Source: Mesotaenium endlicherianum
Lineage: Eukaryota
Direction: 5' to 3'
DNA: 64,000 bases
Assembly: GCA_009602735.1 (NCBI GenBank)
Contig: WELA01003517.1
Coordinates: forward strand, 242,900-306,899
Shown here: positions 12,880-64,000 of the stretch, in pieces
Position numbering within the stretch: the first letter of the stretch is position 1
How the letters are laid out: the number at the start of each line of letters is the position of its first letter
Translations under genes and position numbers: made by a program
Notes under the pieces: model-generated
Databases searched by the model: none
Seen by the model: only the letters and a program-made list of their open reading frames with translations
Told to the model about the DNA's origin: nothing

Positions 12880-12900
12880 AGTTATCACAGTCTTCTTTGT

Positions 12901-20155: not shown

Positions 20156-20204
20156 GGGCAGCAGGCTGGGGATAAGAGGGACAGCACGCTGTTACTAGTG
20201 ATAG

Positions 20205-37167: not shown

Positions 37168-37463
37168 CGTCCCTACTATTCCAGTGACCATCAAATGCCC
37201 CATGACGAGCGCTGCAAATTGTATCTCCTTAGTTAGCAAAAGGATAGGTCACATCCAAAAAAACATTGGTAGATGGGGATGGATGGGTTAATTTTGACGT
37301 GTACGCTAGGGTACAACCGATGACTCCGGAATAGGTGTGGGTAAATTCCAGAAAATTTGCAATTGACCTCGTAAGGTCAATTACGTTTTGACCTATTCTG
37401 TTTTTTTCACGTAAGGTTTCAATTGTAAACGTCAATTAGTTGAATAGGAAGCAGCCCGCCTAA

Positions 37464-39715: not shown

Positions 39716-39734
39716 TATATGCAGCACGCGCCAC

Positions 39735-40180
39735 GCGCACATCCGCACGACGATGGAGCGCACCCGACGGAAACCGCAGGCACCAACACTGACGCCCCTG
39801 CAGGCCCGGCTCGCCTCACGCTGACACCTGTCAGCACTGATCCGCAAGCTCCGACGCACTGACAGATGGCAGGCCCCAGACCTGCGCAGCTCTGCCTGCC
39901 TGTGCTGCGCACGGCCCCGCTATCGGGTCGACGCAGCCGCCACAAACACGTCCGCACGACGACGGAGCGCCCACAACAATTGCCGCAGGCGCCGACATCG
40001 ACGCCCCTGCAAGCCCGGCTCGTCCCGCGCTGATACCTGTCTGCAGCGACACGACGAGTCTCGACTGGCTAACAAGTGGCAGGCCTTAGGCCTGTGCATC
40101 CCTGGCAGCCAACGCTGCGATCGGGCCCATCGACGGGTCCACGCAACAATCAGCGCAGCCCGCGCAGACGTCGACACACG
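39735..40180. repeat. GC-rich tandem repeat, ~210-bp unit, about 2 diverged copies
   Basis: tccgcacgacga..gacgcccctgca..gcccggctcg recurs at ~39742 and ~39951; tggcaggcc..cctg recurs at ~39866 and ~40077. Confidence 0.7.
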
Positions 40181-40470
40181 CACCCGTTGTATGGGCTGCC
40201 CTGCTGGCGCCAGCAGGTCTGCACAGTGCCTGTGCAGCAACAGGTGGCGCCCCAGCACAAGCCCGCCAGCCGGCCACTTCGGCTACAGCTTTAGCTGCCG
40301 TGCGAGTAACGGCCGCGCGGACATGCGCAACGCTACGCACGAGCACGCAGCAACGGGACAAACGCCCGCTGCTGGTTGCTGCTAGCAGCAGGTCCCAGCA
40401 GCCGTCGCCACGTGTCAAGCACACGCTGGTCGGGGTGTCGACTTACGGCAGCGGCATGACCAAGCGCACA

Positions 40471-41022
40471 TGAAAGGGGCAGAGTACCCTAGTGGAAGCG
40501 TAGTAACTCACGAGGAAAGGAACTAGTTGCAATCATACTAAAGAGTGCAGCGGCATATCACTAGGAAAGCCTATGAAAATTACTCAACATTTTGAGTAGC
40601 AAGAAATTGCTCACAAATGATGTAGGATGAAAGGCCTTGTCATTACAAACTCGTAGAAATTTACAGAAGTAAAAAGTCCCAAGAAATGAAGTAGTTATGT
40701 CTATTTATAGTTTTCTACGACGGCCGCTCGCCCCTAGGCGAGAGGGCCGCTTAGCAACGGATTTTCCTAAGTGTTCGTCAAATCGTCCCTTCCAAAATAT
40801 TTGTGAGTAAGCCAGATCAGTCTCATCTGACGTGTTGGACCAAATTGACGTCCACATACATGCATCGACATTACTAGAATGTTCTATCTTAGACACGTGA
40901 GGCTAAACCGAAACTTCTTGGTAAATCGACCTAGTCGGCACTCCGCGTCAGCCGAACTTACGTGAAGGTTCGAGTTCACTCTAAAGGGCCAGATCGCTCG
41001 ACGCTGTCGGTCAATTCGACGC
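40471..41022 (-). mobile_element. fam2 LTR fragment (reverse, truncated)
   Basis: Collinear with the left ~540 bp of the 23560-24303 solo LTR. Confidence 0.88.
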
Positions 41023-44000
41023 AGAAAATACCATAAAGATTACTTGCTGATATAAAGATCTTCATTGATTGTGAATCGCCTATTTGGTAAGTCGATTCAT
41101 TTCAGTGGTATCGGAGCTGTTATCATAGTCTTTTTTGTATGGTAAGAGCAAGGTCTCAAATTAGCAACTCCCGAGACATGGAGAATTAGGATAACGAGAA
41201 TGTCAAAAATCCGGCTGAAAGCTATGTAGCGAGAACCCGTACCTATTCTGAAGCAGTGGCAGATACTGCAGCTAGAGAGGCTGCAGATTAGGCAGTTGCT
41301 ATTGCTGCAGTCGCAGCACAAGGCTGAGGAGGAAAGAGTCAGACTAGAAGCCAAACAATTAGCAAAAGCTGCTGAAGATACAAAACGGAGGGAAGGACAG
41401 CCAGCGGACGAGCGCACTGTTGAAGAACTCATGGCAGCAAGGGCCAATGTTCTGAACCCACCTCCTGCTGTACAACTCTTTGTGCCTCTAATTCGTGACT
41501 GGCTGAATGCGGCACAAATTGCTGCTGCAGGAGCGAAAGGGACTGTTAAGGACACTACTCAGCGAGTGGATGCCACTGCTACTGCTGCATTTGCTAGACT
41601 CGCACTTCAGAGTGTGGACTTGGGAGCATTATTTGTGCAAATGCAATCGCAAATGGCGAGCATGTATCAGTCGCAACAGGAGGACAAAAGAATCATAATC
41701 TCTCTGCTGCGGGACGTAGACCAACTAGGTTCTCAAACCACTGGTGGTAGTGGCAGAGGGCCTAGTTAGCCTAAGCCGAAACCTCCCCAGGACTATGAGC
41801 CTGAGGTAAACAAAAAGTATTACCTGATCAAGTTTCTCGCTGATGTTGAGCAGTGGCTGGAGAACTACCCAAAATTGCAAGATTACGAGAAGGTCAGGCA
41901 CACTGGTGCTCTACAAAAAGGCAGTGCAGCAGACTGGTGGCTGTATTGTAAAGGAGAGCGTAAGGCTCAGCAATTCGGTGACCCTACTTGGGTAGAGTTT
42001 GTCGAGAAATTGCATGAGAAGTTCGATGTCATCAATCAGCAGGAGAAAGTTATCTATGCAATGATCTCCTTGACACTGAAGCAGACCACTTCAGTTGCTG
42101 AGTTTGCTCAAAGGTTCCAAGAGAACATGATGAAGCAGCCAAACTTGCCAGAGCGGTATAGGATAGCATACTTCAGGTATGGCTTGAAATCCGAAGTCTC
42201 TGGTCACTTCGCTGAAATGAAGTATGAGATATTGGCTGACTTGATCCAGGATGCTGATGCCTGGGATCAACAGCAGTTCAATCACAAGCGCCAGAGTAAT
42301 GCTTTGGTGTGTGAGATTGTCAAAAAGCCCCACGGATCCTACAATGCATTTGAAGGAGACCAGGCAAAGGATGATCAGGTCGATGAGTACGACTATGAGA
42401 ATAATGCTATACAGTCTAGAGGGAGAGGTGGTTACTCTCGAGGTGGCTATGGAAGAGGTGATGGTAGGACTAAGCCGAGACCAGCCTCAGCAAAATCTGT
42501 GTGCTTCCATTGCCAGCAGCTGGGTCATTTCAGAGAGGAGTGCCCAGTCAAGCACCTCCCACAGGTCGAGAGAAAAGATCAGCCTTTAAAAGACAGCAAC
42601 AGTTAGTAATCCAGTCTACTGACTGTGAGAATGCTAGAGATAGTGAGTTGTCACTAGCTGCCCTCGTAGCAGGTATTATGGGTCCTGCTGAATTGGATTC
42701 ATTATGCATGCCTGACAACCAGATAAAGGAGACCATCAGCAATGTAGATCTCCAGAGAGTGCACACTTTGGATGATCTTGTTCCACCTGATGTCCAACAT
42801 TTCTTTGCTAAGTCAAGAGAACAATGCGAAAGTCAGGAAAAGACAGTCCCCCCTATCCTACTGCATTGCATGATTGCAGGTAGGAAGATGAGGGCATTTG
42901 TTGACGGAGGGGCGTCACATACTTTTATCCACAAGGACTTAGTTAAGCGGCTAAGGCTGCCTACTGTCACCCAAGGGAATAGAAAAATATTCCTTGGAGA
43001 TGCCTCAAGTATCCCGGGAGGAGTTATAACCAAGCCTATTGAGGTCCAGTTAGGTTCTGGCATTGCAATTCTAACTGAAACGCTTACATTTGAGGTACTC
43101 AACACTGGCTTTTATGATCTCGTGCTAGGCAGGTCCTGGCTTAATAGACATCAAGCTGAAGTGTGTTGGAGCAGAGGTACAGTTAAAGTGAGAGGAGCCA
43201 GTGATGGGCACACTGACTTGGCACCCACCAGTGCTCTTCCTCTTGTCCTGTGTGGATGGCAAATGAAGGAAAAGAAGAGGCTTCCAAGAGGATGCAAATT
43301 GCTGAAAGCAATGGAGTTCATCGAAAGCTGGGAATATCAAAAGACAGAATGTTCTGTCTGCTGCTAAGAGAGGTACCTCCTCAACTTGAAGAAGTGGTTG
43401 AGAAAAAGTTAAGCCCTCCAGAGCACCCTACTGCTGCAAAAATTGTTGCTCAGTACAGTGATCTTTTTAATATGCCTCCAGGACTACCCCCTAAGAGGGA
43501 AGTAGATCACATGATTGATTTACCACCCTGGGAGTCAGCCACCCTTGCAACGCACTTATGGCTTGTCTTATGTGGAGAGCAAAGAGTTGAGAACACAGAT
43601 TGCAGAGCTTGAGGGAAATGGTTATATTTCCCCAAGTAAATGACCTTATGGCGCACCCATCATATTTGTTACAAAAAAGGATGGAAGTATGCGGATGTGT
43701 GTTGATTACAGAGCTCTTAACAGAATTACAAGTAAGAACAAGTACGCTTTACCCAGAATCGCGGACTTGCTTGATACCTTGTCTAGTGCTAAAGTGTTCA
43801 GTAGGATAGATCTCAAGAGTGGTTATCATCAAGTCAGAATTGCTGAGGAAGATGAAGACAAGACTGCCTTCCGCACACGTTATAGATACTATGAATTTAA
43901 TGTGATGCCATTTGGACTGACTAATGCTCCTGCAACCTTCATGGGTGCTTTGAATAACATTTTCAGACCGTTCCTGGATAAGTTTGTGCAAGTCTTCCTG

Positions 44001-47000
44001 GATGATATTTTAATTTTCTCTAGAGATGAAGCTCAGCATGATGAACACTTAAGGATAGTCATGGACACTCTCAGAATAAATCAGTTATATGCTAAAATGA
44101 GCAAGTGTCATTTCTTCAAGGAAAGTATTGAATTCCTGGGCCACGTTGTCAGTCAGGAAGGCATCAGTGTGGATCCTAAGAAAGTCCCGACCATAAGGGA
44201 CTGGCCTGTACCACAGTCTGTCTCCAAAACTAGATCCTTCCTTGGGTTGGCTCACTACTATAGGAGATTTATTGAGAATTATTATACAAAGCCAAGTAAA
44301 CTGACTGACCTTACTAAGAAAGACATAGGGTATGTGTGTGGGGAAGAGCAGCAGGCTGCCTTCCAGACCCTTAAAGATGCTTTTTGTTCTGCCCCAGTGC
44401 TAGCCGTGTATGACCCCAGCAAACTTGTGCAGGTGGTTACTGATGCTTCTGACTTTGCCATGGATGTTGTTTTGTTGCAGCCTGCTGACAAAACCACAAA
44501 GGATGGTAAGGTACGGCAGGGGCGGCACCCTGTGCTGTATGAGTCTATGAAACTCAACCCAGCTGAAATTAACTATTCCGTGCATGATGAAGAGCTGCTT
44601 GCTATCATTCATGTGCTCAAACAGTGGAGAGCATACTTACATGGTAAAGCTTTTAAGGTGATTACAGATCATCTAGCTCTGACTCACTTTCAAAAGAAGT
44701 CCAAGTTGTTGAGGAGGGAGAACCGCTGGAGCCAGATGCTGGAGCAGTTCCAAGTTCAGATTGACTACAAACCACGGAAGTTAAATCCTGCTGATGCACT
44801 CTCTAGAAGACCTGACTTGCAAGAAAGGAACTTTAGTCAGCATGCTATACATAAAGTGTTTTGTGCAATCACTTCACTAAAGGTGAAAAAGTCCTTCCTT
44901 GAACAACTTAGGAAAGCCTACCTTTCGAACCCAACGTTTGAGCCTAGCCCCACTGATGGTGTGTGTCCTGCTACTGCACTCGGGTATAGGCTTGAGGGAG
45001 GGGTCTGGGTGAATGAAACCACTTCAGGCAGGCTGAAGCTAATCATTCCTAATAACTTGGAAATATGGTTTCTCTTACTGAGTCAAGCACATGACAGTTT
45101 TCTGGGTGGCCATTTGGGGCAGGCCAAACTGTTGGCAAACTGGCAAAACATTATCATTGGGAGGAATTACCTCGGAAGGTCTTGAAATATGTTAAGTCTT
45201 GTGATCAGTGTCAAAGAATTAAGTCTAGGCACACACCACCGAGGGGTCTCTTACAACCACTGCCCATCCCAGCTAGCCGCTGGGAAACAATATCCACAGA
45301 CTGGGTGGTAACACTACCACGAACTGCCAATGGGCATGATTTGATACTGGTAGTAGTGGATAAACTGACAAAAATGGTCATTTTCATCCCCACAATCGTC
45401 AAAGTAACTGCACTCGAAACAGGGAGACAGTTCTACAACCATGTAGTATGCCAACATGGGCTACTCTCTAATATCGTCTCAGACAGAGACTCAAAATTTA
45501 CCTCTAAGTTCTGGAGAGCTTTAATGGGGATAATGGGAGTCAAACAGCTGCTCAGCACAGCAAACCACCCTCAGACTGATGGGCAGACTGAAAGAACTAA
45601 CCGAGTTCTGCAAGAGGTGCTGAGAGCATATATTAACCAAAAACAAAACAATTGGGATGACCTGTTGCCTCAAATTCAGTTTGCGGTCAACAGTGCGGAG
45701 CACGCGTCAACAAGCAAGACTTCTTTTACACTGAGCTTGGGTAGAGTCCCTAAGTCGCCTTTAGATGTGCTAGAGGAGTCTTTAACTCAACCTGAAGAGA
45801 TTGACAATCCGATCTCCCTACAGTAAAATTAGGAGTTTGCTGACACCCTGTCAGAAGTCCAACAGAACCTGCACAAAGCCCAAGAATATTAACAAAAATA
45901 CGCTAATCAGCACCGTCAAGAACTGACATTTTCTAAAGGCGATTTGGTCAAATTACATTCTCAACACCTGTACCTGCCTGGTGTGGTCAAGAAAAAGCTT
46001 GGTCCGGTTTGGGTCGGTCCATATTTGGTGGTGCGCCGTGTCGGTCAAAATGCTTACAAATTGAAAATGTCAGCAGAATACAAGGGTCACCCAGTCTTTA
46101 ATGTCTCCTTCATGGAATCGTACATCAAAGGTTACACACTGTTCACAGGTTGGTTATTTGTCCAACCGGGACCAATCCCCGCTGTTCGGGATGGTGACCC
46201 TTAGGAATATGAGGTCGAGGAGATTTTAGACGCTCGCTCTCTCCGTTGATCATCTAAATATGTCATGAAGTACCTGGTTAGATGGAAGGGTTACGATACC
46301 TCTGGGGACTCTTGGGAATTTAAAGACCAGCTGACCAATGCCAAAGGGGCGTTAAATTGGTTCCACCTTTGGGCGGCTGGCACATCTCCCTGACCGTCAT
46401 TTCAGTCGCCCTGGACAGGTGACAGGAGGTCCTGTCTCCAAGTAAGTTGGAGGCGAATGTGACAGTTAAACTGGACAGTTAGTGACAGATAGTGACAGTT
46501 GTGACAGGCAGCGTACCTTTAAAATTAAGTTGGAGGGAGTGTGTTCCGTCTCGGGAGCAGCCAGGCAAAATTTATATGTAATCATTTTACACACTCAACT
46601 TGCGCTCATACTCACTTTTTCTCTCTGACTCAATTCTCCTCTTCTACTCACTCACACAAGGTATTACACACTTGGAACTCTCCCTACCACGTTCCTCTCC
46701 ACCAAGGGTACTCAGTAGCGGCAAAGTACCATGACTTCATTGACTGCATTGTGCTTATGATTGAGCACGATAACTCAGAAGTCGGAACTCTAGAGGAAGA
46801 GAAGAGCGGAAGAGGCACATGCAGATTACTTGCAATTTTGTGGCGACATCGAATCATCCTCCATCTCCGCTCGGGAATCACAACGACTCCAACAAAAGCG
46901 GGAGGCACAGAAGAAGAAGGAGGAGGAGGAACAGGCCAGGCTGAGGCAGGAAGAACTGGACAGACAAGCTGCAGAGGAGGCCAAGAAGGCAGAGGAGGAG

Positions 47001-49344
47001 AGGCAAGCTAAGGAGAGGCGGAAGCAGCATGCTGAAGAAGAAGAACAGAGGAGAATCAGCAGCTACCGCTACACAGTGCTGGGCAAGGGCTTTGATCTAT
47101 TGGAGGAGGCCTTCAAGTATGCCCAGAGAAGTCGCAGTGAGTCGCAAAAGAACATCCTGCAGAGGGAAGGGGAGACATCTGAAAACTTTGACAAGTATAT
47201 AGAGGTCAGCACAGGGCTCCTCCTCTACCACGATTATGCCAGGATGGTAGGATATACGGTCAGAGAGGCCAAGGGAATGGCCCAAGTGAATGAAGAAGGA
47301 GCTGTATCAATTTCGGGTATCTGGGGGAAAGATAGGGTCATCAGAATGATCCCCATGGACGCGGTCAGCTGTAAGGACTCTACATCCCATAACAGGTTCA
47401 AGGCCATGTATAATGAGGTGAAGAGGAGCTGGGAATTCTTGGCCAGGGAAACCAATCAGCTGGACTTCGAAGAGCATTGGTACCCTTGTACGTTGAAAAG
47501 GACAGATCCTGCCTTCTTCCAAAAGCCCACCAATTGGAGGTGGATGACCATTAGCGTGAGGGACCAGCAAAATGACAGGGCAGGAGAGGAAGATTTCCTA
47601 ACAGCCCTACAAGGGAACATAGTGTTGCCCCCTCACATTGCAACTTGGGACCCAAGATTGGATGGAGTAAGAGACTGCATGAGTCAAGAAATGCAGGAGA
47701 ACAGGAGCAGGGCCCGAGAGTCATTCTCGAAAGGGAAGCACGCTTATGTCAACTGGGCAAGCAAGCAGGGAAAGAATGACTTGTATGCGGTCAGGACTCA
47801 ACAACCCCCACCAGCACCCAAAAGAAGAAGGTCAGTGGGGTATTCTTTTTCTCGGGAAGAGCTGGAGCAGCTGACAGAGGAGACCCCAGTAGTCTCAGAG
47901 GAGCCAGGGGAAGAAGAGGAGGAGTAAGAGGAAGAAGAGGAGGAAGGCGAGGAAGAGGACACTAGCCCCGCTGTGACCCAGACACCTGGCACATCCCCTG
48001 TAATGGAGAAGACTGGGTTGGCCAGGGCAGACATAGCTCTGCACCAGCTCGCTGAATAGGAAGATATCACTTGGCTGAGAACTGTCAGAGGACAGATCCC
48101 ATCTGCAGGCGCAGAAACCCAGTCAAACAAGGGAGACAGGAGGGCTGCTAGAGAAATAACCAGAGGCCTGCCAGCATCTCCCTTGCAGAGAGGACATGTG
48201 CCCTTGGCTCATGTCATGCAACATAATTTTGGAATGCCGGTATATGTACCTGTCAATTTGAGGGATGCCCAAGAGAAGGCTGCCTCCCTTCATTTTCAGA
48301 TTGTGCAGAAGGAAACAGCCCAATTACTGCGTTCTCCCCTTGGTTCCCCCTACTCGGAGCCCCCAGGCTTCAGGAGACCCCAAAACAGAAGGAGGAGGTC
48401 TGGCTCCCGGTCTCGCTCCCCTGGCCGTAGAGCCCCAGGAACATCTCCCTCATTAGGGCAGTAGGCTGAGGGCAAAGGGACAGCACACAGTTACTAGTGA
48501 TTCCCACGGTTAGGCATCAGTTTTGGAGCAAGAGGCGATGGGAGGGAGATCAGTACTTTCAGTTGGGCAATACCATGTACCCAATGTTAGTGTTGTCGAG
48601 GCGACAACCTACTAAGTTGGAGGGATTGCAATGAATCTGTATATTGGTAGATATATTATTCATTTATATATAATGATTAAATAAGTTCAGCCTGCTGAAC
48701 TCTAGGTATTATTGAGTCTGCTGGACCTTATAAAATAATCAATTTAATGACTCAGCCGGAAACAGCAGGCTGAAGTCAACTTAGGTCAGCTTGCTGACAC
48801 ATTCTTTGACAGCCAGCTGGCTTCCGTACTCGGCAGCAGCGAACTGCCTAGATATGCATCTAAGTGTGGTGTGCTAGATGAATGGCCAGATGACATCCTT
48901 AGGATGGATGGCGATTCGGGATGATGGGAGATGGCGGTGGATTTGGGTAACCGAGGTCCTACCAACGTGGTTAACTCCCGGGTAGGCGGTGCCATCGCAC
49001 TGGCTATTGAACAGTAAACTCATTCCATGTACATATGCTAGGTATTGCTCTCAAGTTCAGCATTCGGAAACGAGGCCAACTCTCTTGTACAGCTTGCGGA
49101 GAGAGATCTAAATCCAAGGCGAGAAGCCTTTGATATGCACTGTCTTCTAGCCTTGCTTATGTACGAGTTTACTGATTGCATTATTGATGCTAGTTTACTT
49201 CCATTTGACTTTCGAGAATTGTTCACTGCTAGTGTGTTGCTTTTGCTGTTGAATCAATTAACAGAAAATACCATAAAGATTACTTGGTGATATAAAGATC
49301 TTCATTAATTGTTAATTGCCTATTTGGTAAGTCGATTCATTTCA
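41023..49344 (+). mobile_element. Element D: older decayed fam1 chromovirus (only ~80 bp of 5' LTR left; 3' LTR 48627-49344)
   Basis: PBS at 41106; gag, pol and ORF3 with multiple stops and frameshifts; hairpin+PPT ~48591-48626. Confidence 0.92.
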
Positions 49345-50797
49345 GAAGAGGACAAACCCATGGCTATAAGCTTATTTTCCTAAGCTGACCTGTTTGAGTG
49401 AAAAAGATTGAATCTAAATGGAAACCTGGCTTTTGAGCTTCATTGTTTGGGCCATATCTTTGGCAATATAAGTCAAAATCACGTTATCTGTTTTTTGCAT
49501 TAGGTTTATGACTGTCGGCATCTTTTGAGCTATAGTTAGTACAATTCTGTCAACATTGCCGCCCTGTGGATCATAGTTGCTCGACTGACTCGCTAAACAC
49601 CACAACATCATCATTGTATGGCTTTGCAAAGTGAAACTCCCTCAACACCTTGTCCATAGTCCTTTGGAAGATAGCAGGGATCTGGTTGAAGCCTTCGCGC
49701 AGATCAATGATGCTGAACACCTTCCCGGTGGTGGCAATAGAGAAGATCCGCTGTAGCGTAGGCATCACATAGCTGTCTGGCTCTGTGTAGAGGTTTAACC
49801 TCTTGTAATCGCCACACATGCGAGTGACAATATAATTGCCATCTTCATCTTTCTTCGCAACTACTACCGTGGGAGCTCCATGTACAGAAGTTGATTCCTC
49901 AATCATCTCAAGCTTTTGCAGCTCTTGGCAGGTTTTCTCCACACAGTCCCACTCTATCTGACTGAGCTTATGCGGCCATAGTCGAATACGTTCATCTGTA
50001 GTTAGTCTGATTTCGCACACATTGGCTGTGGTTCTGCCATTCTCCTCCTTAGTTGAAATGAACGGACTTACCAATAAGCGATTAACAGTTAATAGCATAT
50101 CTTTATATCAACAAGTAATCTTTATGGTATTTTTTGGTTAACTCATTAATCAGCAAAAGACCACACGACTAACGAAAGCTATACTCATAAGCCAAATGCA
50201 AGTAAACGAGCATCAATCATGCAATCAGTAAACTCATACATTAGCAAGGTTAGAAGAGAGTTCGCATCACATAGCTGTCTGGCTCTGTATAGAGGTTTAA
50301 CCTCCTGTAGTCGCCACATATGCGAGTGACAACGTAAACGCCATCTTTGTCTTTTTTTGCAACTACTACTTCGGGAGTTCCATGTACTGACGTTGATTTT
50401 TCAATCATCGCAAGCTTTTGCAACTCTTGGCAGGTTTTCTCCACACACTCCCACTCTGTCTGACTGATCTCATGTGGCCCTAGTTGAACAGGTTTATCGG
50501 TAGTTGGTGTGATTTTGCACTCGTTGGCAGTGATTCTGCCAGTCTCCTCCTTAGTGACAGCAAACACCTTGCGGTGCTTCTTCAACAGCCTTTGTACTTG
50601 TGCTTTTTGTTGGGATGAGGCCAATATTTTTAATGGCAAACATCTCAATTTTTGACTGCTTCTCTCCAGCAAAGGCATCCAATAGTTACACTGTTGCTAC
50701 TCCTGGAGTCCAGGTAGAGAATTCTCACTCTTCTCCTTCCCCTCTGGCTTTTCAACCTGATCACTTGGTGGTGGGGTGATAGGCTTCTTAGCCTATT

Positions 50798-53700
50798 TGT
50801 AAGGTCATAGGTTTATAAAGTGCATTTTTGAAAGTATGTTTTGGTTGCATAGAAATGTAGAGTGCATTGTTGTGGTCATTTTGATATAAAGTTCATCAAA
50901 TTTGATTAAGTATTGAGAAAGTTATGGATTTCCAAAGTTTAATTAGCTTTGAGGTCGGTTGACGACTGTCCTTAAGTCGCGGTGAGCGCCATTGACGGAT
51001 TGACCGACAGCGTCGAGCAATCTGGGCGTTAGAGTGAACATAATTTTGGTTGACGCGGAGTGCCGACTAAATCAATTTACCTAGAAGTTTCGGATTAGCC
51101 TAGCGCGTCTAAGTTAGTATATTCTAGATATTTCAATGCATGCATGTGGGCGTCAAATCGGCCCGACACGTCAGATAAGATTGATTCTGCCTACTCACGA
51201 ATATTTTGGAAGGGACGATTTGACACACTCACAAAAATCCATTGCTAAGCGGCCCTCCCGTCTAGAGAGGAGGACTTAGGTCAGAAAACTATAAATTGGC
51301 ATAACTTCCTCATTTCTTATCAGTTTTCACGTCTGTAACTTTCTACGGGTTTGTAATGACTAGGCCTTTCATTTCAATTCATTTGTGAGCAATTTCTTGC
51401 TACTCAAAATGCTGAGTAATTTTCCTAAGCTTTCTTAGTGATATGTTGCTGCACTCTTAAGTATGATTGCAACTATTCTTTCCTCATGAGTCATTACGCT
51501 TCCACTAGGGCACCTCGCCCCTTTCATCCGGTATCGAAGCAGGGCTAGTTTGCATATTATATTATGGAGTCGCAGCCGCCACCTGGAGGAGGCGAACATG
51601 TCGAGCATGTTGAGCGCGTGGGGCAGCAGGCATCACCAACCATGACCAGAGAGCAACAAGAGATGCAGGCGATGCTAAGGCAAATGGCAAATGCAATTGG
51701 AAAGGAAGTCTACGCCCAATTTCAACAAAGTATGCGCGTGAAGCTGGAGAGAATGGTGCCAGTTGTTGTTGGATATGCCGCTTCAACAAGTTCGGCACCT
51801 GCACCTGCTATACCACCAATTCATGTTCAACCAGTGGTGCAACCAGATATTCCACCCGCATCGGGAGTGCGTGCGCCTAAGCCTGAAGTGTATACTCGAG
51901 AGCGTGGATCGCCGCCTGTTCATCAATGGATTTTTGGAAGGAAAAAGTTTATGGAGTATTCTGCGCTCACGACCGACAGGCAAGTCGCCTGTGATTACCT
52001 TGTTGAAGAAGAGTGCTGGAGCTTGGTATGAGCGAGAGGAGCAACTGTCTGGGATTCCTGCTACTGTTGATCAGATATTTGAAGGCTTGAAGAGGCAATT
52101 TCAACCTATTGCACCCGAGGCTTCTGCTCGAGGTTTATTGGTGCGCCTTCGTCAACGAGGAAGCGTTCAGGAGTATGTATCGCGCTTCAACGAGCTGGTG
52201 CTTCAATGCCCATCCATGCACGAGTCGGAGATGATGGACAAGTTCAAGAGGGGACTCAAGCCAACTGTAGCCAAAGAAGTGGCACTCAAGGACCCTACCA
52301 ATCTTGGAGGAATGATGGCATTGGCGACGAGGGTCGACGCTGTGGAGTATAGTCAGAGGGCAGTGGGGCAACGACAATTTTGGAGGACATCGACTCTTTG
52401 GATCTCCAACGCCAAGCACGAGTGGACAAGGCCCAGTACCTATGGAATTAGGACTTGTTCAAAATTAGCGCAGGCATCATCATTTTAAGCCGAGAGGATC
52501 CTGCTATAACTTAGCAAGCTTGGGCATCTCGCTCGAGACTGTCGTGTGAAGGCGAAGAAACCTCAACAACAGGAAAAAGGAGGACGCCAGTAAGTCGTTC
52601 TGGGGCGTCTACTGGCGTGAAGATGGGAATTCACAAGGAGGTTATTCCCAGGAGCCTACGGAGAAGCGAAAGACGAGATGTTGACAAGCCTATTATCGTG
52701 GAAGGAGTGGTCGACGGCAACAAGGCGAAGTGTATGGTTGACAGTGGCGCAAGTGCAAATTTTGTGCACAAGAAGCTTGTGAAGGAGTGGCGAATTCCTG
52801 TGCAGAAGCATTATGAGCCTAAGGAGGCAAATGGGCGAGTGGGCGAATGGGCGAATGGGCGAATGGGCAGAGACTCAAGTGTGGTGCACCTACAGAAGCT
52901 ATTCACGTGGAAGTAGCGGGCACCAGAGTAATGAAGTTCTGGAGCAGGCAGAGTTAGGTCACCATGAGGTGATATTGGGCCGACCATGGCTAAGAAAAGT
53001 AGGTTTACTGGAGCACAGGACAAGTGAAAGTCCAAGGGCGTGATGGTCGAATGGAGACAACAAAACAGGTGGAGGTAGATACACCACAAGTAACTGTTTT
53101 GTGTCGAACCTGCGAGTTAAGAAGCTATGCAGGGCAAATCAGGTGAAGGAGATGTACCTTGTTTCGGTGGCCCTGACCCATTCATCAGATGGAGCAAGCG
53201 TGAATTGTAAAAGTCTGGGCAAGAGCTTGTTGCCAGAGGAGCAAGTAGCGGTGTTTGATCCCCTTGCTTAGAAGGAGCAGAGCCCAACTGCTCAAGAGAA
53301 GAAGAAGCCTGCTGAGATGCCTGCCCAAATTAAGGCGTTGTTGGAGGAGTTCAAGAGCGTGTTTTCTGAGAAACTACCTGCAGGATTACCTCCACAGAGA
53401 GCTATGGAGCACAAGATTGAATTGGAACCAGGGAGCAAGCCACCGGTGAAACCCGCCTATCGACAATCGTTTGTGGAGCTGGATGAGTTGAAGAAGCAGC
53501 TGACATAGTTATTGGAGAAGGAATTTATCCGACCCAGCGAGTCTCCATTTGCAGCGTCAATCTTATTTGTGAAGAAGAAGGATGGGACTATGAAGATGTG
53601 TGTCAACTACCGAGCACTCAACAAAATCACCAATAAGAACAGGTACCCACTTCCATGAGTGGACGAGTTGATTGACAGGCTTGTCGGGGCGAAGTATTTC

Positions 53701-55027
53701 TCGAAGATCGATTTGAGGAGTGGCTATCACCAGGTACGGATTGCAAAAGAAGAACGGCATATGGTATTATGGTGATTCCAAGAGAGTGGTGGTACCTGAC
53801 ATCAAGGAGCTATGAGACTTACTACTTGCGGAGCATCATGACGGCTTATATGCTAGACACTTTGGAAGTGAGAAGACGGCAAGCGTGCTGAAGCGAGAGT
53901 ACTATTGGAGAAATATGGACAAGGACATCGAGGAGTGGATCAAAAATTGCGATGCGTGCCAGCGGAACAAAACGCCGAATCGGAAGAAGGGAGTTACGTG
54001 CGGCCATACGTTGACCCAAATGAAGGACATCCAGGATGACTACCTACACCGCCATCACCGGTCGAGATCGATAATGTATTGGAGTATGAAGTGGAGGCGA
54101 TTGTCGGCGATCGACGAGTCAAGCGAGGTCAACAATTTGTTCAAGAATATCTGGTCAAGTGGAAAGGCTACCATGCGGACGACAACACTTGGGAGCCGGA
54201 GGCCAACTTGACTCATTGTAAGAGTAAGTTGAGACGTTATCTGCAGAATGCGTCGAGGACGTCGCATCTTGAGGAGGGGGATGATGTAAGGTCATTGGTT
54301 TATAAATCACATTTCTAAAAGTATATTTTGATTGCATAGAAATGTAGAGTGCATTGTTGTGGTTATTTTGATATAAAGTTCATCAAATTTGGTTAAGTAT
54401 TGAGAAAGTTATGGATTTCCAAAGTTTAATTAGCTTTGAGGTCGGTTGACAACTATCCTTAATTTTGCGGTGAGCCCGACCGTCGGATTGACCGACAGCG
54501 TCGAGCAATCTAGGCCGTTAGAGTGAATTCGAACCTTCACATAATTATGGCTGACGCGGAGTGCCGACTAGGTCGATTTACCTAGAAGTTTTGGATTAGC
54601 CTAGCGCGTCTAAGTTAGTATATTCTAGATATTTCGATGCATGCATGTGGACGTCAAATCGGCCTGACAGGTCAGATGAGAACGATTTGGCCAAGTCACG
54701 AATATTCTGGAAGGGACGATTTGACAAACACTTAGGAGAATCCGTTGCTAAGCGGCCCTCCCGTCTAGGAGGACTTAGGTCAGAAAACCATCAATAGGCA
54801 TAAGTTCCTCAATTCTTATCAACTTTCACTTCTGTAAATTTCTACGGGTATGTAATGACGAGGCCTTTCATTCTAGTTCATTTGTGAGCAGTTTCTTGAT
54901 ACTCAAAATGCAGAGTAATTTTCCTAAGCTTTCTTAGTGATATGCTGCTGCAGTCTTTAGTATGATTGCAACTAGTTCTTTTCCTTGTGAGTCATTACGC
55001 TTCCACTAGGGCACCCCGCCCCTTTCC
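50798..55027 (+). mobile_element. Element E: fam2 chromovirus, internally deleted (non-autonomous)
   Basis: LTRs 50798-51526 and 54285-55027; TSD CTATT/CTACT; degenerate Met-type PBS; gag; PR VDSGAS; only the RT N-terminus and the integrase zinc finger remain; chromodomain YEVEAIVG...YLVKWKGY...[21 protein letters not shown]. Confidence 0.9.
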
Positions 55028-57149
55028 CTACTCCTCTTGAGCCTTAGGCTCTGTTGCCTTACCTTCAGGTCCCTTACCCTTTCCTTGCGATCTACGTTTC
55101 TCTTGTTGTGAGTCAAACTTCAGCCGCCTCTTGATCGGTTGTCGTAGGAACCGTTCTTTGTCTTCGCGAGTCCAGCTGGTACCCGTCCCGCCTGCTTTGA
55201 GTGGTGGACGTGTATTGGCCACTGGCCATTTAGCCCGGTCATGGGTAGTGATCCTTGGATCAATAGTCCACCCCCACTGACGCTCTAGTGTAGGAATGTG
55301 GTCTAGTGTAACTCCAAGATTTTCTCCTGATGGTGGTGTGATTGTCCAGCCACGTGACACAAACCAAGGATCTTGCAGATCTGCCAACCTACTACGTAGA
55401 GTATTCTCCTCAACCAAGCGCTGCACTGTCCTTCTCAGGTCAGCGACTTCTTGTTCAGTGGCTGTGGGTGCCCTAGGGGCAGATTCTGCTCTTCCCCACA
55501 TTCCAGTGGCTGACGACGTTACCATGGGAATGTGAAGTCCCTAAGCGGCAGCTCTACGCATGAGACCTGCTTTGCCTTCCCTCTGTAGAATATTATTGGT
55601 TGGCTGTGGTGGGGCAGTGATTCCTTTTGGAGCTCCTTTCGTGCGAGGTTCCCCTCGGTACTTGAGGTTACGTATCAACATCCGTTTGAATGGTGCGTTT
55701 CCCTCACAAGCCACCTTCCTTGGCCTACTCGCGTGGCCTTGTGGCTTGCCTTGAACTGCTTCTGCCTTAGCAACATATGCACTCACCTCTGGTGGTTATT
55801 ACGGCCCTCCTTGTGCTTTTGTTGCTGGCAGTAGGTGACTTCAAGTCTTCATAAAGGTCGGTTGGGTTGGGCCCCTCCAGTGTTAACGGGTCAGATACCT
55901 AGTCATTGGTTTTGAGCTCTTGCAGCTCTTGTAAGTCCAGCTTTGGAGAGGAGACCGTGGGATCTCATTCCCTACGTCCCCTCCATTTGTGAGCTCAGGC
56001 AATTTGAACTCTCGCGCATCAGGCATTTCTGCCTCGACTGACTCTTCACTCCTGGTAGCGACGATTCTTTGTCATCTTCCGTGTTGAGCTTGGCCGTATT
56101 GATAATCGTGTCTTGCAAGGAATGCGCTACTTGCGCTACCTTCTCTCTTTTGCGCTGATCGGCATCTGCCTTCAGAAGTTGATCGAAATCTGCCTGGTGA
56201 TGTTCCCGGCTGTTAAGCAAACTGTAGCCAGCTGACGCTCCTCCTTGGTTGACTTTAAGTTGGATGCGTAGCACGTCTTCCTTGCTTCCTCAATCACCTC
56301 CTTGTGACTCTCATTAGTCAGTTCCAAGCATATGGTCCTTCCAGACCTCTAGAGTCTGCAGACTTCTGGCTGCTTGCTTCGGCCCATTCACCAATGTTGC
56401 ACTGGCGCTCAGCATGATAGGCCTAATAGTCTTGCCGTCTTGGGTCATCGTCCTCTAGAGTGCAACTTGGTGTACCATTTGACCATTTCCGATCTTGTGA
56501 GGATGATAGGCAGCGCTGATTAGCTTCCCAGCTACTTGAGCTCGCTTCCCAGTAGTGACCATTTTCAGTCGCTCTTGGATTGTCATTAGTGTCGTAACCA
56601 GAGTGTCCACCCTCTTCTCACAGCGAAGTCGCCTCCTGTCTTGGCGTCTGCTGCCGTTCAAGTGTATCTTCTTGTTCAGGTGATGGTATTATAATTAGTC
56701 CAGCCGCTGCTTCTCTTAGCTAAGGCGGCGTGACTTTTGTGTCTTCTACCCATGGCCCAGATATTATGAGTGATGTAGACCTGTCTGTCACTTCTTCGTC
56801 TGGTGGGGGAGAGTCTCGTCATGGTGATCTTTGTCTGCCATGGGCGTGTCTTCCCTTTCTAGAAGTGTAGTTAGCGCAACCAGCCTATGATCTATGCGTT
56901 CCCGCAACTCGTGACATTGTGCCAATTTTTAGCCATCCCGGCTTCTTTGAGTGGAGTGTGGGTACCTTTGGTTTCTCCAGCAGCATTTCTGCGTCTTGGA
57001 GTCAGCTCCCGGCGTTGTCAAACGTTCCGGTCAAGTCTCTGATCCGAAGTGGGTACCACAAATATTTTACTTCATACCTTTGGCGGCTTGGGCATGGGCT
57101 TATTGGCAAAAGCCATTTGTTGCCGAGTCATAGTAGTCTCCAGCAACCA

Positions 57150-58085
57150 GGTCATAGTATGTTGCCCAATTATGTTGCCAAAAATCTTGGCCGCCTCTGT
57201 CCTTCCAACCTTGTGGATAATGTCCATAACAACCTGCTCTGGAAGTCCCAAACAACTTCCCTTTTCCATAGCATATGGTTCTCGCCAAAGAGAGTCGGTG
57301 GCAAAGTCTCTAACCATTCCAGCTCCTCCTTTGGTGACTCAGGGTAGGCTGTGGAGGTACGCAGAACCTCCCTTGGTTTCCTTGGTTTGTTGATGCCATA
57401 CTCAGGGTAGGTATTCTTCCTTGCCACCGATTTAGTAATTACTCCCAGCACTTCTCCCACGCATCGTGCGTTAGGTGGTCGTTTTGAGATAGTCTCCATA
57501 GCCCTTAAATGTTCAATGGGCATACCATTTGTCTAGAATATCTTGGCTCGTGGAGACAATCCCCCACGCCTTGCGTCGTTTAGCAAGGCATGATGCCCCA
57601 AGGTGGAGTCGAAGATCAACCATGGAGCCTCTGGCTTCATCTCCTTGTAGTCCAATTTTGGGTGCACATTCTTAATCACTAACACAGGTGGAAACTGGCG
57701 CTGGCGTTCCTGCAGCGACTAGATGATTTTCACTATCTTTCCCCAGTGTTGTGTTTTGTGATCATTAAATCCTCTTCTCATTTCGGCTTGAGAAAATGGT
57801 TGGCAAGGAAATCCAGCAAATACCCAATCAATCCGGTATGGATGAGGACTTTCCAACCTGACGTTCTTGATGCATCCGTCAGCCATACGCTCCACGTGCT
57901 GGTAGGCTGGCGTCAATTCCTTGAAATGATACATTTGCCGCATCTGACTCATGGCTTCTTGAAAAGTGCGGAAGGCGTTGTCGTTGTGATCCATATAGAG
58001 AACTTTAGACACTTTAATCCCCCTCTAAATCAATGCCATAGTCCCAAATCCCAACCCACCAAATAATTCCAGTACCACCACTCCC
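57150..58085 (-). pseudogene. C5 cytosine DNA methyltransferase domain within the polyprotein of element F
   Basis: Motifs in canonical order: I VLELFGGLG; II LYMD; IV FAGFPCQPFS; VI LVIKNV (ENV-like); VIII NDARRGGLSPRAKIF*TN; IX REPYAMEKGSCLGLP; X KIFGNII. Motifs I-VIII lie in one frame broken by TAG stops. Confidence 0.85.
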
Positions 58086-61000
58086 GCTTCTCGGAAGAGA
58101 TTTTCCATCCGGATAGTCGCTTGAGATATAAGCTCCACTTCTGGCATCAAATTTAACACTGAAGTGACTGGATAAGGCACAGGTCGCAACTCTTGCGGGC
58201 CACGTTCCATGTTACTCACCGTTTCCAATTGCGCCATCCTGTTTGTCTGCCAAACCAATGATAGCGGCATGTTGATGCTGGCGTAAGCTTCTTCCTCCCT
58301 CTTCATTAAGTTGTCATAGAATACTGGATACCCGGTGGTTGCACAGCAGTCTAGGATCCCATAACTTGCTGCACCATGGCAAACCATCTTCACAGGAATG
58401 TCTCCTGCTGGTTGCTTATCCGTTTGCTGGTAGGTCACCTTTTGCTTCCGCACATCGATAAGCATGCCCAAGGGAATCAGTGCTTCTGTTCCCAGTAGTA
58501 TGTCATAGTTCTTTTCTTCTGTCACGATGCATTCGATCCACAATGACGCCTCCTCAGGTTTCCTCGAGTATACTGTGAGTTTCACAAGCTTGCGGGTGAT
58601 CCCTTAAGATTTGGAAACTTGCGCTGATGCGGTCCTCAACTGGAAAGGGCTGTCTTTTAGATTCCTTGCAATCAATCCTAGAGCTTTCACAACTCGTTTT
58701 CCCAGGATGACTAGTTGTGCGCCCGTGTTCAATGAATTGTTGGGGGCAGCCCAGTTGTTGAACTTCAATACACCCTCTTTATTCAACACTCTTACAGTGC
58801 TGAAATTCGCAGGCAATGAGGCGCTATTCGCACCTTCCTCAGCCGTATCCAGCTGTCGCTTGGTCTCTTCGACCGTGAAAGGCAATGTAATATGCAAGTC
58901 AACAAGTGAGATCATAGGTGTATGCTGAATCCGGTGTTCCACCAGAGCTTTCAGCTTATCCAACGAAAAATCGAACGTGCGTGACCCAATCCTGGCTTGG
59001 CGTAGCTGAGCGATCTCCTTTTCAACTAGGGTGATCCGAAAGGTCTGTGGAAGCTTCCCAGCGTTCTTAGGCACCAATTGGTCATGATTTGCCCACTCAT
59101 TGGCTATTGCAGTCGTTACCTTTTTCAGGCATCAACTTCTTGCCTTTGAGACGGTTTTCTCTGCCACATCTGCATCATAGTAGACATTGGGTGTATTTAA
59201 TTTTGCAAATTGAGCTTTTAACTCAACAATCTCATAGCATCAAACTCATGATTGCCCTTGTAATCACCAGAGTTATCCTTTCTTTTCTTTTTACCCTTTT
59301 GCCTCTTTCGTGGCAGCATAAGCCCATGGTGGCTTTAAATTTGGATTCTTAGACCAACACTCATCTTCCGAGTGTCCCTTTTTGCTGCAATGTGGGCAAA
59401 CTTACCCTTTGCTAGCAAATAGTTGCTTAGCATCCGGGTACAGACAATCTCTCTTTTGATGTCCTGATTTTCCGCAATTCCAACAATCTTTTGCTGTCCT
59501 AGCAATGTTGGCGTGCTTAGCAAACCTATTGAAAGACCCGCTCTTCTTCTTAAACTGAAATTCAGAGCTGTTGGCCTTAGGAGGAGAGATTCTTCCTTTT
59601 TCTCAGGAGCCATAGGCATCCCGAAAGTCTCCTTGTACCAGACTTTACCTTCCTCGACATTGCGTGCTATTTCAACAGCTTTGTCGATGTCCCAGTCGAT
59701 TCCGCGTCTTGCAGATAGATGTGGCCTGACTTCACAATCTGTCTCCTTGCCCAAGCACAACATAAACTTGTCAGCCACAATCCTGGGCTCGTAGATTCCT
59801 GCCTTTTTGGCAAGATCTACTAATCTGGACTTAACCTCCATTGTTGTCTCATTCTTCTGACGGACAAAATGCACATACCGGTGCACCTTAAGACTGTGAT
59901 CCTAAGAAAAACGCTGCTCAAGCAACTTAAAGAAACGACGCAAACAGTGTTCAAGATCCAACTGGTTATCTCCAACTTCCATATCCCTGCGACAAATAGC
60001 CAAAGCTTCCGCCTAACTAGCCTCAATGGTAGCACTGTTGCCTTGCTGCCCAGTAAATAGTGCAGCCCTGCGTGTTACTCTATCCTGGGCATTTGCAATC
60101 ATTTCAGACACATATGCACACACTCTACGCAATTTTGCGACGGACCCGACATCATTATCTGGAGAGGTCGTTCTTTGTTGACCCCCGGTAAGGTGTCACA
60201 TGGCCTCAGTAAGCTCTTTTGTTAGTGCAGCTAAGTCTACGCTCTCGACAGGTGCGGCAGGCACTGCTCTCCCCGACGACAAAGCGGACAAACGGGCTTT
60301 CCCAACCTCTTTCTGAAATTTTAAATCCCTTGCTTTCTTTGGCTCTCCAGATGCCCATTCCTGGGTAAGGTCCTCATCCTTCCGGAATTGACGATAGAGT
60401 AGCAAGGCATCCTTGTCCAAGTATTGAACCTGACTTATGAATGCAACAGACTGTGTGTATGAGACATCATTTTGGATCTTCTCAAAGAAGTCCACTCAAT
60501 AGATCTCATCAAACTCTTCAAACATGAGACTATTTTCGCCAGATTGTCTGCTAAAGCATTTCGTAGGCAGCTTGAACTTAGAATTTTAATCCCTGTCATT
60601 ACCAGCCATTTCTACAGGTGACCAGGACTCACTGACTCTTACCCACGCGTCTTGTTCTCTGCTCAAATCAGGTGCAAATAAACGTGCGTTATAGGGATTC
60701 TCATCGTTTGCAGAGATATGGCGAGGCTCGTCTCCCAACGGCCGCTCACTCCACGGGTTGTCAGACCGCTCAGATGTCTCACTTCTTCGTGGACTTTGGT
60801 TAGAATCAGAGCTTTCTGCAGGCTCCATAGGATGATAGATCTTACCACTCCTCAACCGCATGTACAATTGAATTTCTCCGGGTCCTCTTCCAGGTTAAGC
60901 TCCGGCAGTCTTCACAAGGTCTCAATCCCCAATTTTCTTAGGAACTCTTGTTCACCTGAACCACTCAATTGAAGTTCTCAAAAGTAGGACAGACGTGCCC

Positions 61001-62841
61001 TATTTCCAAATAGGCTTTCGCCAAAGTTGACGGTTTAACCAAGTGAACAAATTTGTAGTTTGCAAAAATTACGTCTAAGCAAATTAACACACACACACAG
61101 CACCAGTGTTCATAGGAAATCGCCCACCAGGGCTTTCGCTTAACTTTCACTGAGTCACAGCTTACAAAACTCTGAAAGTATGGCAACTATGCTAGCCTGG
61201 TTTGAGCACTTCGCCCAACACTGCGCCTTAGCAATTCTTATCGTTGGCTAGGCTCACTCACTTCTTCACTAAGAGTGCTCCTGATTAATTCCGCTCTTGC
61301 TTTCAATAATTTGACAATAGAGACTTCTAAGAAATTAGAAACTAACACAGCACTCACCATTTTATGTGCTCTCGCACGCTTGTGGTGTCCGGGTCCAACT
61401 TTACGCTAGTAATCCTTGCTACTTTCTATCAGAGATCCCTTCTTGAGAACTCCTTAACTCTAACTTTTCTATGATACAAAGAAAGGATCTTCGACCGTCG
61501 GCTGGAGATGCCTCCTTGGCTCTCCCGTAGCCTTGGGAATTCCCTTCACCTTCGCGCCCTTCTCTTTTATTCATCTCTCACTCTTGGCTCCTTCTGCTGC
61601 CTTGGCAAACGTACGCGGCAAGAATGAGATGAGATTGTGCAACGCTTGTGCCTTACTCGGGCACCACGCATGCAGGCCTCTCCCTCTCTCTCGAGTTCCA
61701 ATGCTGCGTCACACCCCTCACACAACACATGCATGCAATCTTGAGTTTATCACTCGAGCGTCTTAACCTCTTGGTTAGCATGCAAGCCTGGGCAACGTCG
61801 CAGCCCATGTCCCTTGGGTGGCTGCTTAAGTAGTGGCAAACTCGGCCCAAGTCCAGCGACAAAGATCGCCATCCAGTCAGCGCTTCTGACTCGGCAACTT
61901 GTGCATGTCTGCAGCATGGTCAGCTTCGCAGCTGACTTGGCATTTCCTCCCGGCTCTTCAGCCTAGTCAGCTTCGCAGCTGATCTGTCAATTCTTGCAGG
62001 CCTAGCTTAGTCAGCTTTCCGGCATACTGGACTGTGAAACCCATTCACCTCTGAGCGTCGGGTTTGACCTCACTTCTGGTCAAGTTCACTCGTCGTCTAA
62101 ACTAGTGCTGACCTGTCGGTGGTCAACTGATGGGACTGAAGTCAGCGCTGACTTCTGACCCTGGGCGGGTCGTGACTTGTGCTGCGGCACCGTCAGACGG
62201 ATAGCAGTCGCCACAACCAGCCCTTACTGTCCATAATGTCATTTCACTTATACGAACTGATATTCATACTTGTCGGTTGCATTAGAACCTGCGCCTGTTA
62301 TGGAGCCACCTTAGAAATTGCCGCATGTGCGGATGCTGGCGGATGCAAGATCGCGCGGCAATACATCGGTGACCGCAATTAGGATCGATCCCAATCTGCG
62401 TGTTTACTTCCAAATTTTCGTCTTTGTCTTAAAGTCGGTCGCAGTGAAATGTGCGCCTTTTACAGAGCCACATTAAGAGACTCCACGAATGGATGCAAGA
62501 TTGGATCTTCAAGCAAAGAAGCCTAGTCGTGAAGCAAATTTTTTGATCTAGCTGTCTAGTGTCACAGACCATCTTAATTGCTTGAAGTGGTGCTGCAGGA
62601 TCAGCGTGTACAATGGTATATTTAATCTTCTTAGAGCTGCGTTTGGATCGATAGGCTGCTGAAACCCGAGGAAGACCGAATATTGATGATCATTTCCCTT
62701 GCTCTGCCTGTGAAGGACTGTTGCTCTCCGTTTTTCATAGTCAGCAGCTAGACGGGCTCCGGACTGCCTTATTGTTGACAACAAAATGCCAGAACCTAAG
62801 GTTCTTTGACCTGTTTCGGTGCGGACGAAGTACACTTCAGT

Positions 62842-63381
62842 ATGGCTCTTTCGACACCTGCCTCAAGTGAGCCTGTGGGTCAGACAAATGCCGCCCGAAG
62901 TCCGGCGTCGGCGTCTGAGCTAGACGTCGAATCTGGGACAAGCTCTTCGAATGGTCCACCTACACTCGTGCTTCCCTTCCACAGCAGTCCAAAATACACC
63001 TCTGCCCCGTCCAGCTCATCAGTTCCTCAGGGCAAAGCGCATGACCACGGCTACCACCCACCCTCGCCTCCAACTTTTGGCCTCTCCTCTCCCTCTCGTG
63101 CAGCTGCTCCAGTGCCTCCGCCAGCAAGAGCCCAGCAGGCTTCTAGAAGTTCCCAGCAGTCCACGTCCTCAGAGTCGGTAGTCATATCCCCTGTTCTCGC
63201 CCTAGATGCTTACTCTGTCCCGAGCCTATCCCTCCCTTCGCCTGTCCCCCGGGGCCCTCCGTCGTTCTTTGAGGGAGACGATGGTGCTGCTGGGCCGGGG
63301 GTGTACGGCACGGATCTATCGGAGGACAATCTCAACGGTGCTGAGACATCGGAGCCATTTGTGCAATTCACTGCCAGCTTG
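62842..63381 (+). CDS. Probable first coding exon of an unknown host gene (Ser/Pro-rich N-terminus)
   Basis: ATG at 62842, open for 180 codons to a plausible donor TTG|GTACGC, followed by an (AC)n-rich intron-like stretch like those in clpD. No recognisable domain. Confidence 0.45.
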
Positions 63382-63469
63382 GTACGCCCCTGTCCGACCA
63401 TGGCTACCATGTCGCACCCCCTCCCCTGCCCTACCCCTCCCTCCGGTGTCCTGACCAGCTCTAGTGTCA

Positions 63470-63618
63470 ACACATATGCACACATGCACGCACGCACGCA
63501 CGCACATACGCAGGCACGCACACACCAGGCACACACGTGCACACACACGCAGACGCACGCACACGCACTCACATACGCACACGCACACGCGCACACTCAC
63601 GCACACGCGCGCGCGCGT

Positions 63619-63666
<48 letters not shown>

Positions 63667-63730
63667 GCGCACGCACAAACACACGCTTACATGCATGCAC
63701 GTACTTTGAGGTGACACGCACGCACGCACA
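63470..63730. repeat. (AC)n/(GC)n/(ACGC)n microsatellite complex
   Basis: Seen directly. Confidence 0.9.
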
Positions 63731-64000
63731 CCACGGCCGACGCCGCCCGGCGATGAATCAGCGAGTAACACTACGAAGCAAGCTGCAGTGGCTGCTGCCA
63801 TGGACGCGCGCCCACCTTACCTGCAGCCTGCACATATGGGACGCCCGCTCCGCTCTCACAACCAGCACAGTGCGCGCCCCAGCATGCACGCCAGCACGCG
63901 CGCCAGCTGGCATGATGGATGGAAGCCTGCAACAGCTCCCTGTGTGTCGGCGCCTCTCTCTCCCCTCCCTTTCCCCGTCGGCCCAAGACTCCCGAGCGCG

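Follow-up and report, generated by a model that had tools for sequence, protein, structure and literature searches.

A decayed, probably Ty3/gypsy-type retrotransposon carrying a DNMT3-type cytosine methyltransferase domain in Mesotaenium endlicherianum

Retrotransposons that encode their own C5 cytosine DNA methyltransferase (DNMT) have been described in several forms. De Mendoza et al. 2018 (PMC5890265) report DNMTs in LINE and DIRS elements of Symbiodinium (SymbioLINE-Dnmt and SymbioDIRS-Dnmt3) and, in the Pol region of a Gypsy element of Klebsormidium nitens, a DNMT3-related domain (KnitGypsy-Dnmt3). They also propose, as a hypothesis, that such elements methylate their own new DNA. Here, we analyse a stretch of 64,000 nucleotides from the alga Mesotaenium endlicherianum (assembly GCA_009602735.1, contig WELA01003517.1, positions 242,900 to 306,899 of the forward strand; ‘the window’ below), whose minus strand carries a DNMT domain inside the remains of a long terminal repeat (LTR) retrotransposon. 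We read these remains, with good confidence, as one dead and truncated member of a Ty3/gypsy-type family present in many copies, which has a DNMT3-type domain between its protease and its reverse transcriptase (RT); an undamaged copy would likely methylate its own new DNA.

The two Symbiodinium systems are likewise retrotransposon-borne DNMTs, and in SymbioDIRS the domain is of DNMT3 type and lies in Pol; according to PMC5890265, it methylated CG de novo in yeast. SymbioDIRS (which has a tyrosine recombinase) and SymbioLINE nevertheless belong to other retrotransposon classes and to another host lineage. EpiLTRs, known from Cymbomonas tetramitiformis and Euglena gracilis (bioRxiv 10.64898/2026.05.21.726589), are also LTR elements with a cytosine DNMT, but their DNMT is near DNMT4, is joined by a chromodomain and by a DAM domain (an adenine methyltransferase), and in Cymbomonas sits at the 3' end of pol. 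The accessible part of Sarre et al. 2025 (PMC12344493) mentions retrotransposon-embedded DNMT3 solely as previously reported. An earlier note on this DNA had called elements of this kind rare rather than new, which agrees with KnitGypsy-Dnmt3 in PMC5890265.

Like the window element, KnitGypsy-Dnmt3 is of Gypsy type, has a streptophyte alga as host and carries in Pol a DNMT3-related domain that is unrearranged; the legend of Fig. 4c in PMC5890265 gives the element a DIRS-like terminal repeat arrangement. The K. nitens protein GAQ93235.1 (P0024 in our set), with the order CCHC-protease-DNMT, is most likely a copy of KnitGypsy-Dnmt3, as we infer. It aligns with the protease end and the DNMT of the window copy (query 16-416) at E 1.4e-10 and 24% identity. 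Besides this identity, the two differ in the class of the host, which is Zygnematophyceae here, and in the linker between DNMT and RT, which is much longer in the window. Judged by these comparisons, the two elements appear to be of the same kind while not belonging to the same family.

On the minus strand, the window element can be followed from a 5' part to a fragment of RT. The 5' part (60496..61500), an untranslated leader and probably LTR, was recognized from contigs assembled from the DNA run X1 of the same organism and aligned at a likeness of at least 80%. These reach a summed depth of 6,500-24,000 over it (single-copy level, ~75); the outer boundary of this part was not found in the window. 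Next comes a gag region (59335..60495) in several broken frames, with open reading frame (ORF) pieces at 60196-60495 and 59335-59901 and a CCHC zinc knuckle at 59405-59602 (zf-CCHC, PF00098; E 1.6e-5, 25.2 bits against a Pfam cut-off of 20.8). It is followed by an aspartic protease (58325..58801), the DNMT domain (57117..58108), a linker of ~2.1 kb (55028..57116) and, beyond a nested element on the plus strand (50798..55027), the RT fragment with its YNDD box (49574..50620). That is, gag with a zinc knuckle, aspartic protease and RT follow each other on one strand in the order by which Ty3/gypsy elements are recognized.

A single minus-strand frame runs from 59131 to 57173 and leads from the protease into the DNMT, broken by single stops only. 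Within it, the ORF 58025-58603 (minus strand) contains both the protease C-terminal motif NYDILLG (its YDILLG at 58507-58490) and methyltransferase motif I (VLELFGGLGFG), just as the earlier note had observed, and the next ORFs lie in the same frame with one stop between each. The protease was located with two relatives by tblastn: residues 654-814 of P0026 align to 58783-58325, and residues 785-1180 of P0039 align to 58801-57443, protease and DNMT in one piece. Its Pfam matches are weak (gag-asp_proteas E 0.012, RVP_2 E 0.081), and its catalytic Asp has become Asn in the window copy (LNTGAQ, 58732-58715), at a place where the relatives have D[TS]GA.

Motifs I (58072-58043), IV (GFPCQPFS, 57814-57791), VI (VIKNV, 57679-57665), VIII (a VIII-like RAKIF*TN, 57550-57527, the asterisk being a stop), IX and X of the DNMT follow each other in unpermuted order. 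The earlier note had claimed such an order and in this it was right, with the correction that motifs IX-X lie in another frame: homologues align to 57335 and resume at 57326-57117 (tblastn), so a frameshift precedes motifs IX-X. The N part of the domain (58108-57335) is in the protease frame and contains three TAG stops (58027-58025, 57721-57719 and 57535-57533), and a TAA lies in the same frame at 58606-58604. In motif VI, ENV has become KNV. The catalytic residues of this copy are thus not all intact, Pro-Cys-Gln of motif IV being kept and the Glu of ENV lost. Pfam family PF00145, which the earlier note had named as the family to look for, matches a 101-aa piece (57722-58024) at E 6.5e-8 and 32.8 bits (cut-off 22). 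A profile of the protease-DNMT relatives scores 127.7 bits on the N part (E 5e-41) and 22.1 bits on the shifted C part (E 7e-9). The resulting span, ~58108-57117, is close to the 57150-58085 first proposed. With its stops, its frameshift, KNV and the protease Asn, the window copy is dead several times over; the same note had called it dead from TAG stops and KNV, to which the TAA and the frameshift can now be added.

As to the type of methyltransferase, a profile made from the query and 21 relatives was searched against solved structures. It matches DNMT3A (6.2e-23), DNMT3B (4e-21) and DNMT3C (1.3e-20) best, is weaker on DRM (9.6e-12), M.HhaI (1.4e-10) and DNMT2 (2.3e-5), and finds no DNMT1 chain at E<=0.01. 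A structure model of the N part, based on an alignment of 24 relatives (pLDDT 75.6, pTM 0.80), matches 191 PDB chains at E<=0.001; every match listed is a C5 cytosine methyltransferase, DNMT3A/B/C rank at the top, and the best Foldseek matches, DNMT3A/3B, reach E 6e-9 and a TM of ~0.5. Profile and predicted fold alike rank the domain as DNMT3 type. It resembles the host enzymes DNMT3A/3B/3C, its best matches on both counts, also in its unpermuted motif order and in the short region between motifs VIII and IX. It differs from them in having no PWWP or ADD domain, in lying inside a retrotransposon polyprotein and in its motif IV, GFPCQ. Plant DRM, on the other hand, has a permuted motif order, unlike the window DNMT.

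Between the DNMT and the RT lies the linker, which ends with an open stretch of 170 codons (55540-55031) that keeps the frame of protease and DNMT. No Pfam family matched its ORFs on either strand, nor did the DNMT profile match it. Other copies, seen as X1 contigs, cover it at a summed depth of ~800-2,700. About half of these contigs carry one additional base at each of two sites, 55948 and 56046, which would fit the linker being coding in other copies, without proving so. A second, degenerate DNMT in the linker was considered from a weak tblastn pile-up at 55283-55470 and rejected: the best E of the DNMT profile there is 1.8, and the similarity is put down to composition.

The linker ends at a nested chromodomain Ty3/gypsy element (50798-55027), which is not part of the DNMT element and is internally deleted. 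Its LTRs, at 50798-51525 and 54285-55026, show a likeness of 88.2%, and the element has Retrotrans_gag, protease, Integrase_H2C2 and Chromo domains (the last at E 9.5e-20). The LTR starts with TG and ends with TTTCA in three of four aligned copies, the nested element's own 3' LTR ending with TTTCC; solo or partial LTRs related to it lie at 23560-24302 and 40470-41021. The element is flanked by CTATT and CTACT, a 5-bp target duplication that matches at four of five positions. Moreover, the codons of protease and DNMT and those of the last 170 codons of the linker all start at 1 mod 3, and once the insertion is removed together with one copy of the duplication, the next codon, 50792, is in the RT frame. 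We join the RT to the DNMT part because of this duplication and the frame that continues after excision. With the nested element removed, gag (CCHC), protease, DNMT, linker and RT form one reading frame. The order gag-PR-DNMT-linker-RT (PR, protease) given in the earlier note is hence borne out, with the proviso that the RT lies beyond a nested insertion and is linked through target duplication and frame.

The RT fragment itself matches PF00078 at E 2.2e-5 with 24.7 bits, below the cut-off of 29.6, and aligns with the RT of P0039 (residues 1362-1536) at 36.6% identity (E 2.8e-22). It is cut at 49345 by an LTR of the window's main Gypsy family. One odd rearrangement lies within it (49762-50555, minus strand): a 292-bp direct duplication, its halves 86% alike, surrounds a 216-bp piece of a main-family LTR (50054-50269).

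We considered whether this RT (50620-49574) comes from another element, the DNMT unit then being a non-autonomous gag-protease-DNMT element or one of a different kind, and regard this as improbable. The RT similarity would allow it, as it does not discriminate: the RT of P0039 is ~36% identical both to the window RT fragment and to the RTs of the window's other Gypsy elements, and RT was rejected as a marker of kinship among the protease-DNMT elements. The linker of ~750 codons, compared with ~140 residues in P0039, also speaks for a separate RT, as do the predicted proteins P0005, P0024 and P0026, which end after the DNMT; these shorter relatives, however, are on short contigs or marked partial. 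P0039 (2188 aa) is a whole protein with the complete order CCHC-PR-DNMT-RT-RH-IN (RH, RNase H; IN, integrase), and a separate RT would leave aside both the four matching positions of the target duplication and the fact that excision puts the RT in the frame of protease-DNMT and linker.

Other copies of the element are abundant in the genome. In total, 2140 X1 contigs lie on 55027-61500, with a summed depth of ~800-3,800 over linker and DNMT; gag and the 5' part reach 2,250-32,000. The DNMT region (57060-58110) is covered by 207 of them, 17 at 99% likeness or more, 20 at 95-99%, 60 at 90-95% and 110 below 90%. At the TAG at 58027, 10 contigs have another letter (807.6 of 878.9 of summed depth); the same holds for 11 contigs at the TAG at 57721 (992.8 of 1199.9), for 17 at the TAG at 57534 (1379.3 of 1683) and, at 57673, the K of KNV, for 13 (1306.1 of 1815.6). 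These variant letters, 72-92% of summed depth per site, translate to sense codons and to Glu, and the stops and the lost Glu are therefore mostly private decay of the window copy. The family is multi-copy and keeps the DNMT in many copies, the domain being no one-off capture.

A piece of a host DNMT3 gene that came to lie beside retrotransposon debris by chance, through a one-off capture or an assembly chimera, is accordingly a very remote explanation, even if the window has a single DNMT copy and is a dense nest of elements, as such an accident would have it. Motif I and the protease end share one uninterrupted ORF, and one of the 207 contigs (1633 bp) runs from 57080 to 58064. Likewise, the same protease-DNMT junction occurs in proteins of Klebsormidium, Closterium and Mesostigma. 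This agrees with the earlier note, which had held that a one-off capture would speak against its proposal: other genomic copies do carry the DNMT.

No RNA reads fell on the DNMT bins in the samples of X6, X9 and X12 and of X7, X10 and X13 (6-24% of each run), a result that, at this sampling, weighs neither for nor against expression. The only place with such reads on the examined stretch is 61291-61500, with a few from X9 and X12; they are 80-95% alike and continue into unlike sequence, and likely stem from related LTR copies elsewhere.

Relatives were sought with the protease-DNMT read-through (X at the stops). A word-based search with this query, among proteins of similar and of greater length, gave nothing at E<=0.001. 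When 1.84 billion cluster representatives were searched exhaustively with HMMER, 182 proteins came out at E<=1e-3, of which 21 at E<=1e-10, the best at 1.8e-19 and 33% identity. Because this best match reaches only 33%, the Mesotaenium family itself is apparently not in the protein collection. Pfam, run on the 39 best matches, finds PF00145 at E<=1e-4 in 31, many of them with RT, RNase H, integrase or protease.

The architectures of the relatives were read with local hidden Markov models on 155 proteins (150 hits and 4 members of their clusters, besides the query itself). Of the other 154 proteins, 153 match the profile of the window DNMT domain. The DNMT directly follows the protease in 25 of the 155, including the query and two members of the same cluster; in 69 it lies after RT/RNase H and/or before integrase, usually with a PHD finger next. 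It stands alone in 59, many of them on short contigs, and 2 have other arrangements. P0004, P0008, P0010, P0011, P0027, P0032 and others form a large group, Gypsy polyproteins with RT-RNaseH-DNMT-(G-patch)-integrase-PHD, one of which has a Tudor-like domain.

Source names were looked up for 30 hits and their cluster members. The protease-DNMT order is found in K. nitens (GAQ93235.1), Closterium sp. NIES-68/-53/-54 and Mesostigma viride. The Closterium proteins (GJP34393.1 and others) and that of Mesostigma (Mv19666) share the order CCHC-protease-DNMT with the window element; they are database predictions and ~25-29% identical to the window copy. The order RT-RNaseH-DNMT-integrase-PHD has one named source, a ‘pol’ protein of Scenedesmus sp. 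PABB004 (KAF8056149.1). Its DNMT belongs to the same HMMER neighbourhood as the window DNMT but sits between RNase H and integrase, with the PHD finger after the integrase. A DNMT profile made from the protease-DNMT group scores the window copy best, and profiles of the Scenedesmus-type group score it lower. Taken at face value, these predicted proteins fall into two fixed architectures, one in four streptophyte algal genera (Mesotaenium included) and one in a chlorophyte. No published description was found for Mesotaenium, Closterium, Mesostigma, Zygnematophyceae or the chlorophyte type in the literature searched, a body outside which most subscription journals lie. The high-copy Mesotaenium family is apparently undescribed.

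How might such an element use its methyltransferase? The DNMT domain would be translated as part of Gag-Pol and, after protease cleavage, would be freed or left fused. It could then act de novo on the reverse-transcribed cDNA or on a fresh insertion. The resulting mark may make the new copy resemble methylated DNA of the host, or may damp the element's own expression. This self-methylation step, suggested in the earlier note too and predicted along the lines of the hypothesis in PMC5890265, has by our estimate a little under an even chance of being right.

The main rival holds that the DNMT no longer methylates DNA and is instead a structural or a DNA/RNA-binding module, or acts on RNA. We consider it unlikely, if slightly less so than a separate RT. 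Motif X normally has the form GN..P, and across the family this region reads ‘G.aMD’, which would favour the rival. In an alignment of 22 rows, however, every row has the catalytic Cys-Gln in motif IV, and almost no change is seen in ENV or in the R.R of motif VIII; the catalytic motifs appear to be kept across the relatives, and ENV is also kept in most other genomic copies. The further support that the rival draws from KnitGypsy-Dnmt3 is taken up next, among the points that weigh against our reading of a Ty3/gypsy-type family with a self-methylating domain.

The nearest relative described so far has been assayed once in print: expressed in yeast, the KnitGypsy-Dnmt3 domain produced no de novo methylation, from which the authors of PMC5890265 draw no firm conclusion, as human DNMT3B failed too. 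The Gypsy class of the DNMT element is assigned from gag, protease, RT and relatives. Neither RNase H nor integrase of the element was found on the minus strand (scanned over 37232-50812 and 54433-64000), and no LTR pair of the element was found in the window; 55028-62000 takes part in no repeat pair other than that of the nested element's LTR. The element is truncated at 49345 by a foreign LTR, and its RNase H, integrase and 3' LTR are absent from the window. A TGG at ~61135 that resembles a primer-binding site was read by eye only and is not convincing. At the frameshift site, no indel reaches a share of at least 50% among the contigs; the break is perhaps shared among copies, or perhaps unresolved by these contigs. 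No intact copy is seen whole among the short X1 contigs. In a FastTree tree of 106 DNMT domains, drawn from the hits of this search only, the window copy is on a very long branch and its placement is uninformative. The undiscriminating RT similarity described above counts on this side as well. On balance, we retain the reading of a dead copy of a Ty3/gypsy-type family with its DNMT between protease and RT.

Elsewhere, too, the window is mainly nested LTR retrotransposons. Its greater part (10526-49345) is taken up by one Gypsy family whose LTRs measure ~760 bp; the several copies lie nested or in tandem (12786-20202, 27710-32588 and 41024-48501 are examples), are 84-97% alike and share LTRs with their neighbours. 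At 39517-39690 (plus strand), DDE_Tnp_4 matches weakly (E 0.003, which misses the cut-off), possibly a trace of a DNA transposon of PIF/Harbinger type. A host gene for a ClpD-like chaperone occupies 1-7605 (minus strand); its exons are GC-rich, and it contains (CA)n tracts as well as N runs that mark assembly gaps. The first of its large exons (6814-7605) matches jgi/Mesen1 ME000167S01816 (eukprot), which we take for a gene model of M. endlicherianum, at 99% identity, and the next best match reaches at most 73%.

Hosts silence transposons chiefly by cytosine methylation, and a transposon with a de novo methyltransferase of its own inverts this logic. To our knowledge, Klebsormidium is the only described streptophyte case. 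Zygnematophyceae are the algal class closest to land plants, and the high-copy Mesotaenium family, together with its look-alikes in Closterium and Mesostigma, suggests that the arrangement is long-lived across streptophyte algae. The pattern of two architectures among the relatives is a more interesting lead than the single copy in the window. Tentatively, and with somewhat less than even confidence, we propose that Ty3/gypsy elements acquired a DNMT3-type domain early in the history of the green lineage, in one event or very few, and have retained it, as protease-DNMT-RT from Mesostigma through Klebsormidium to Zygnematophyceae and as RT-RNaseH-DNMT-integrase-PHD in chlorophytes. If this is true, de novo methyltransferases borne by retrotransposons would be old and widespread among green-lineage genomes rather than peculiar to Klebsormidium, and host DNMT3 genes might have come from such elements or passed into them. 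The result extends a known finding and brings no new principle; it does mean that there are now several genomes in which to ask about self-methylation and about the origin of plant methylation pathways.

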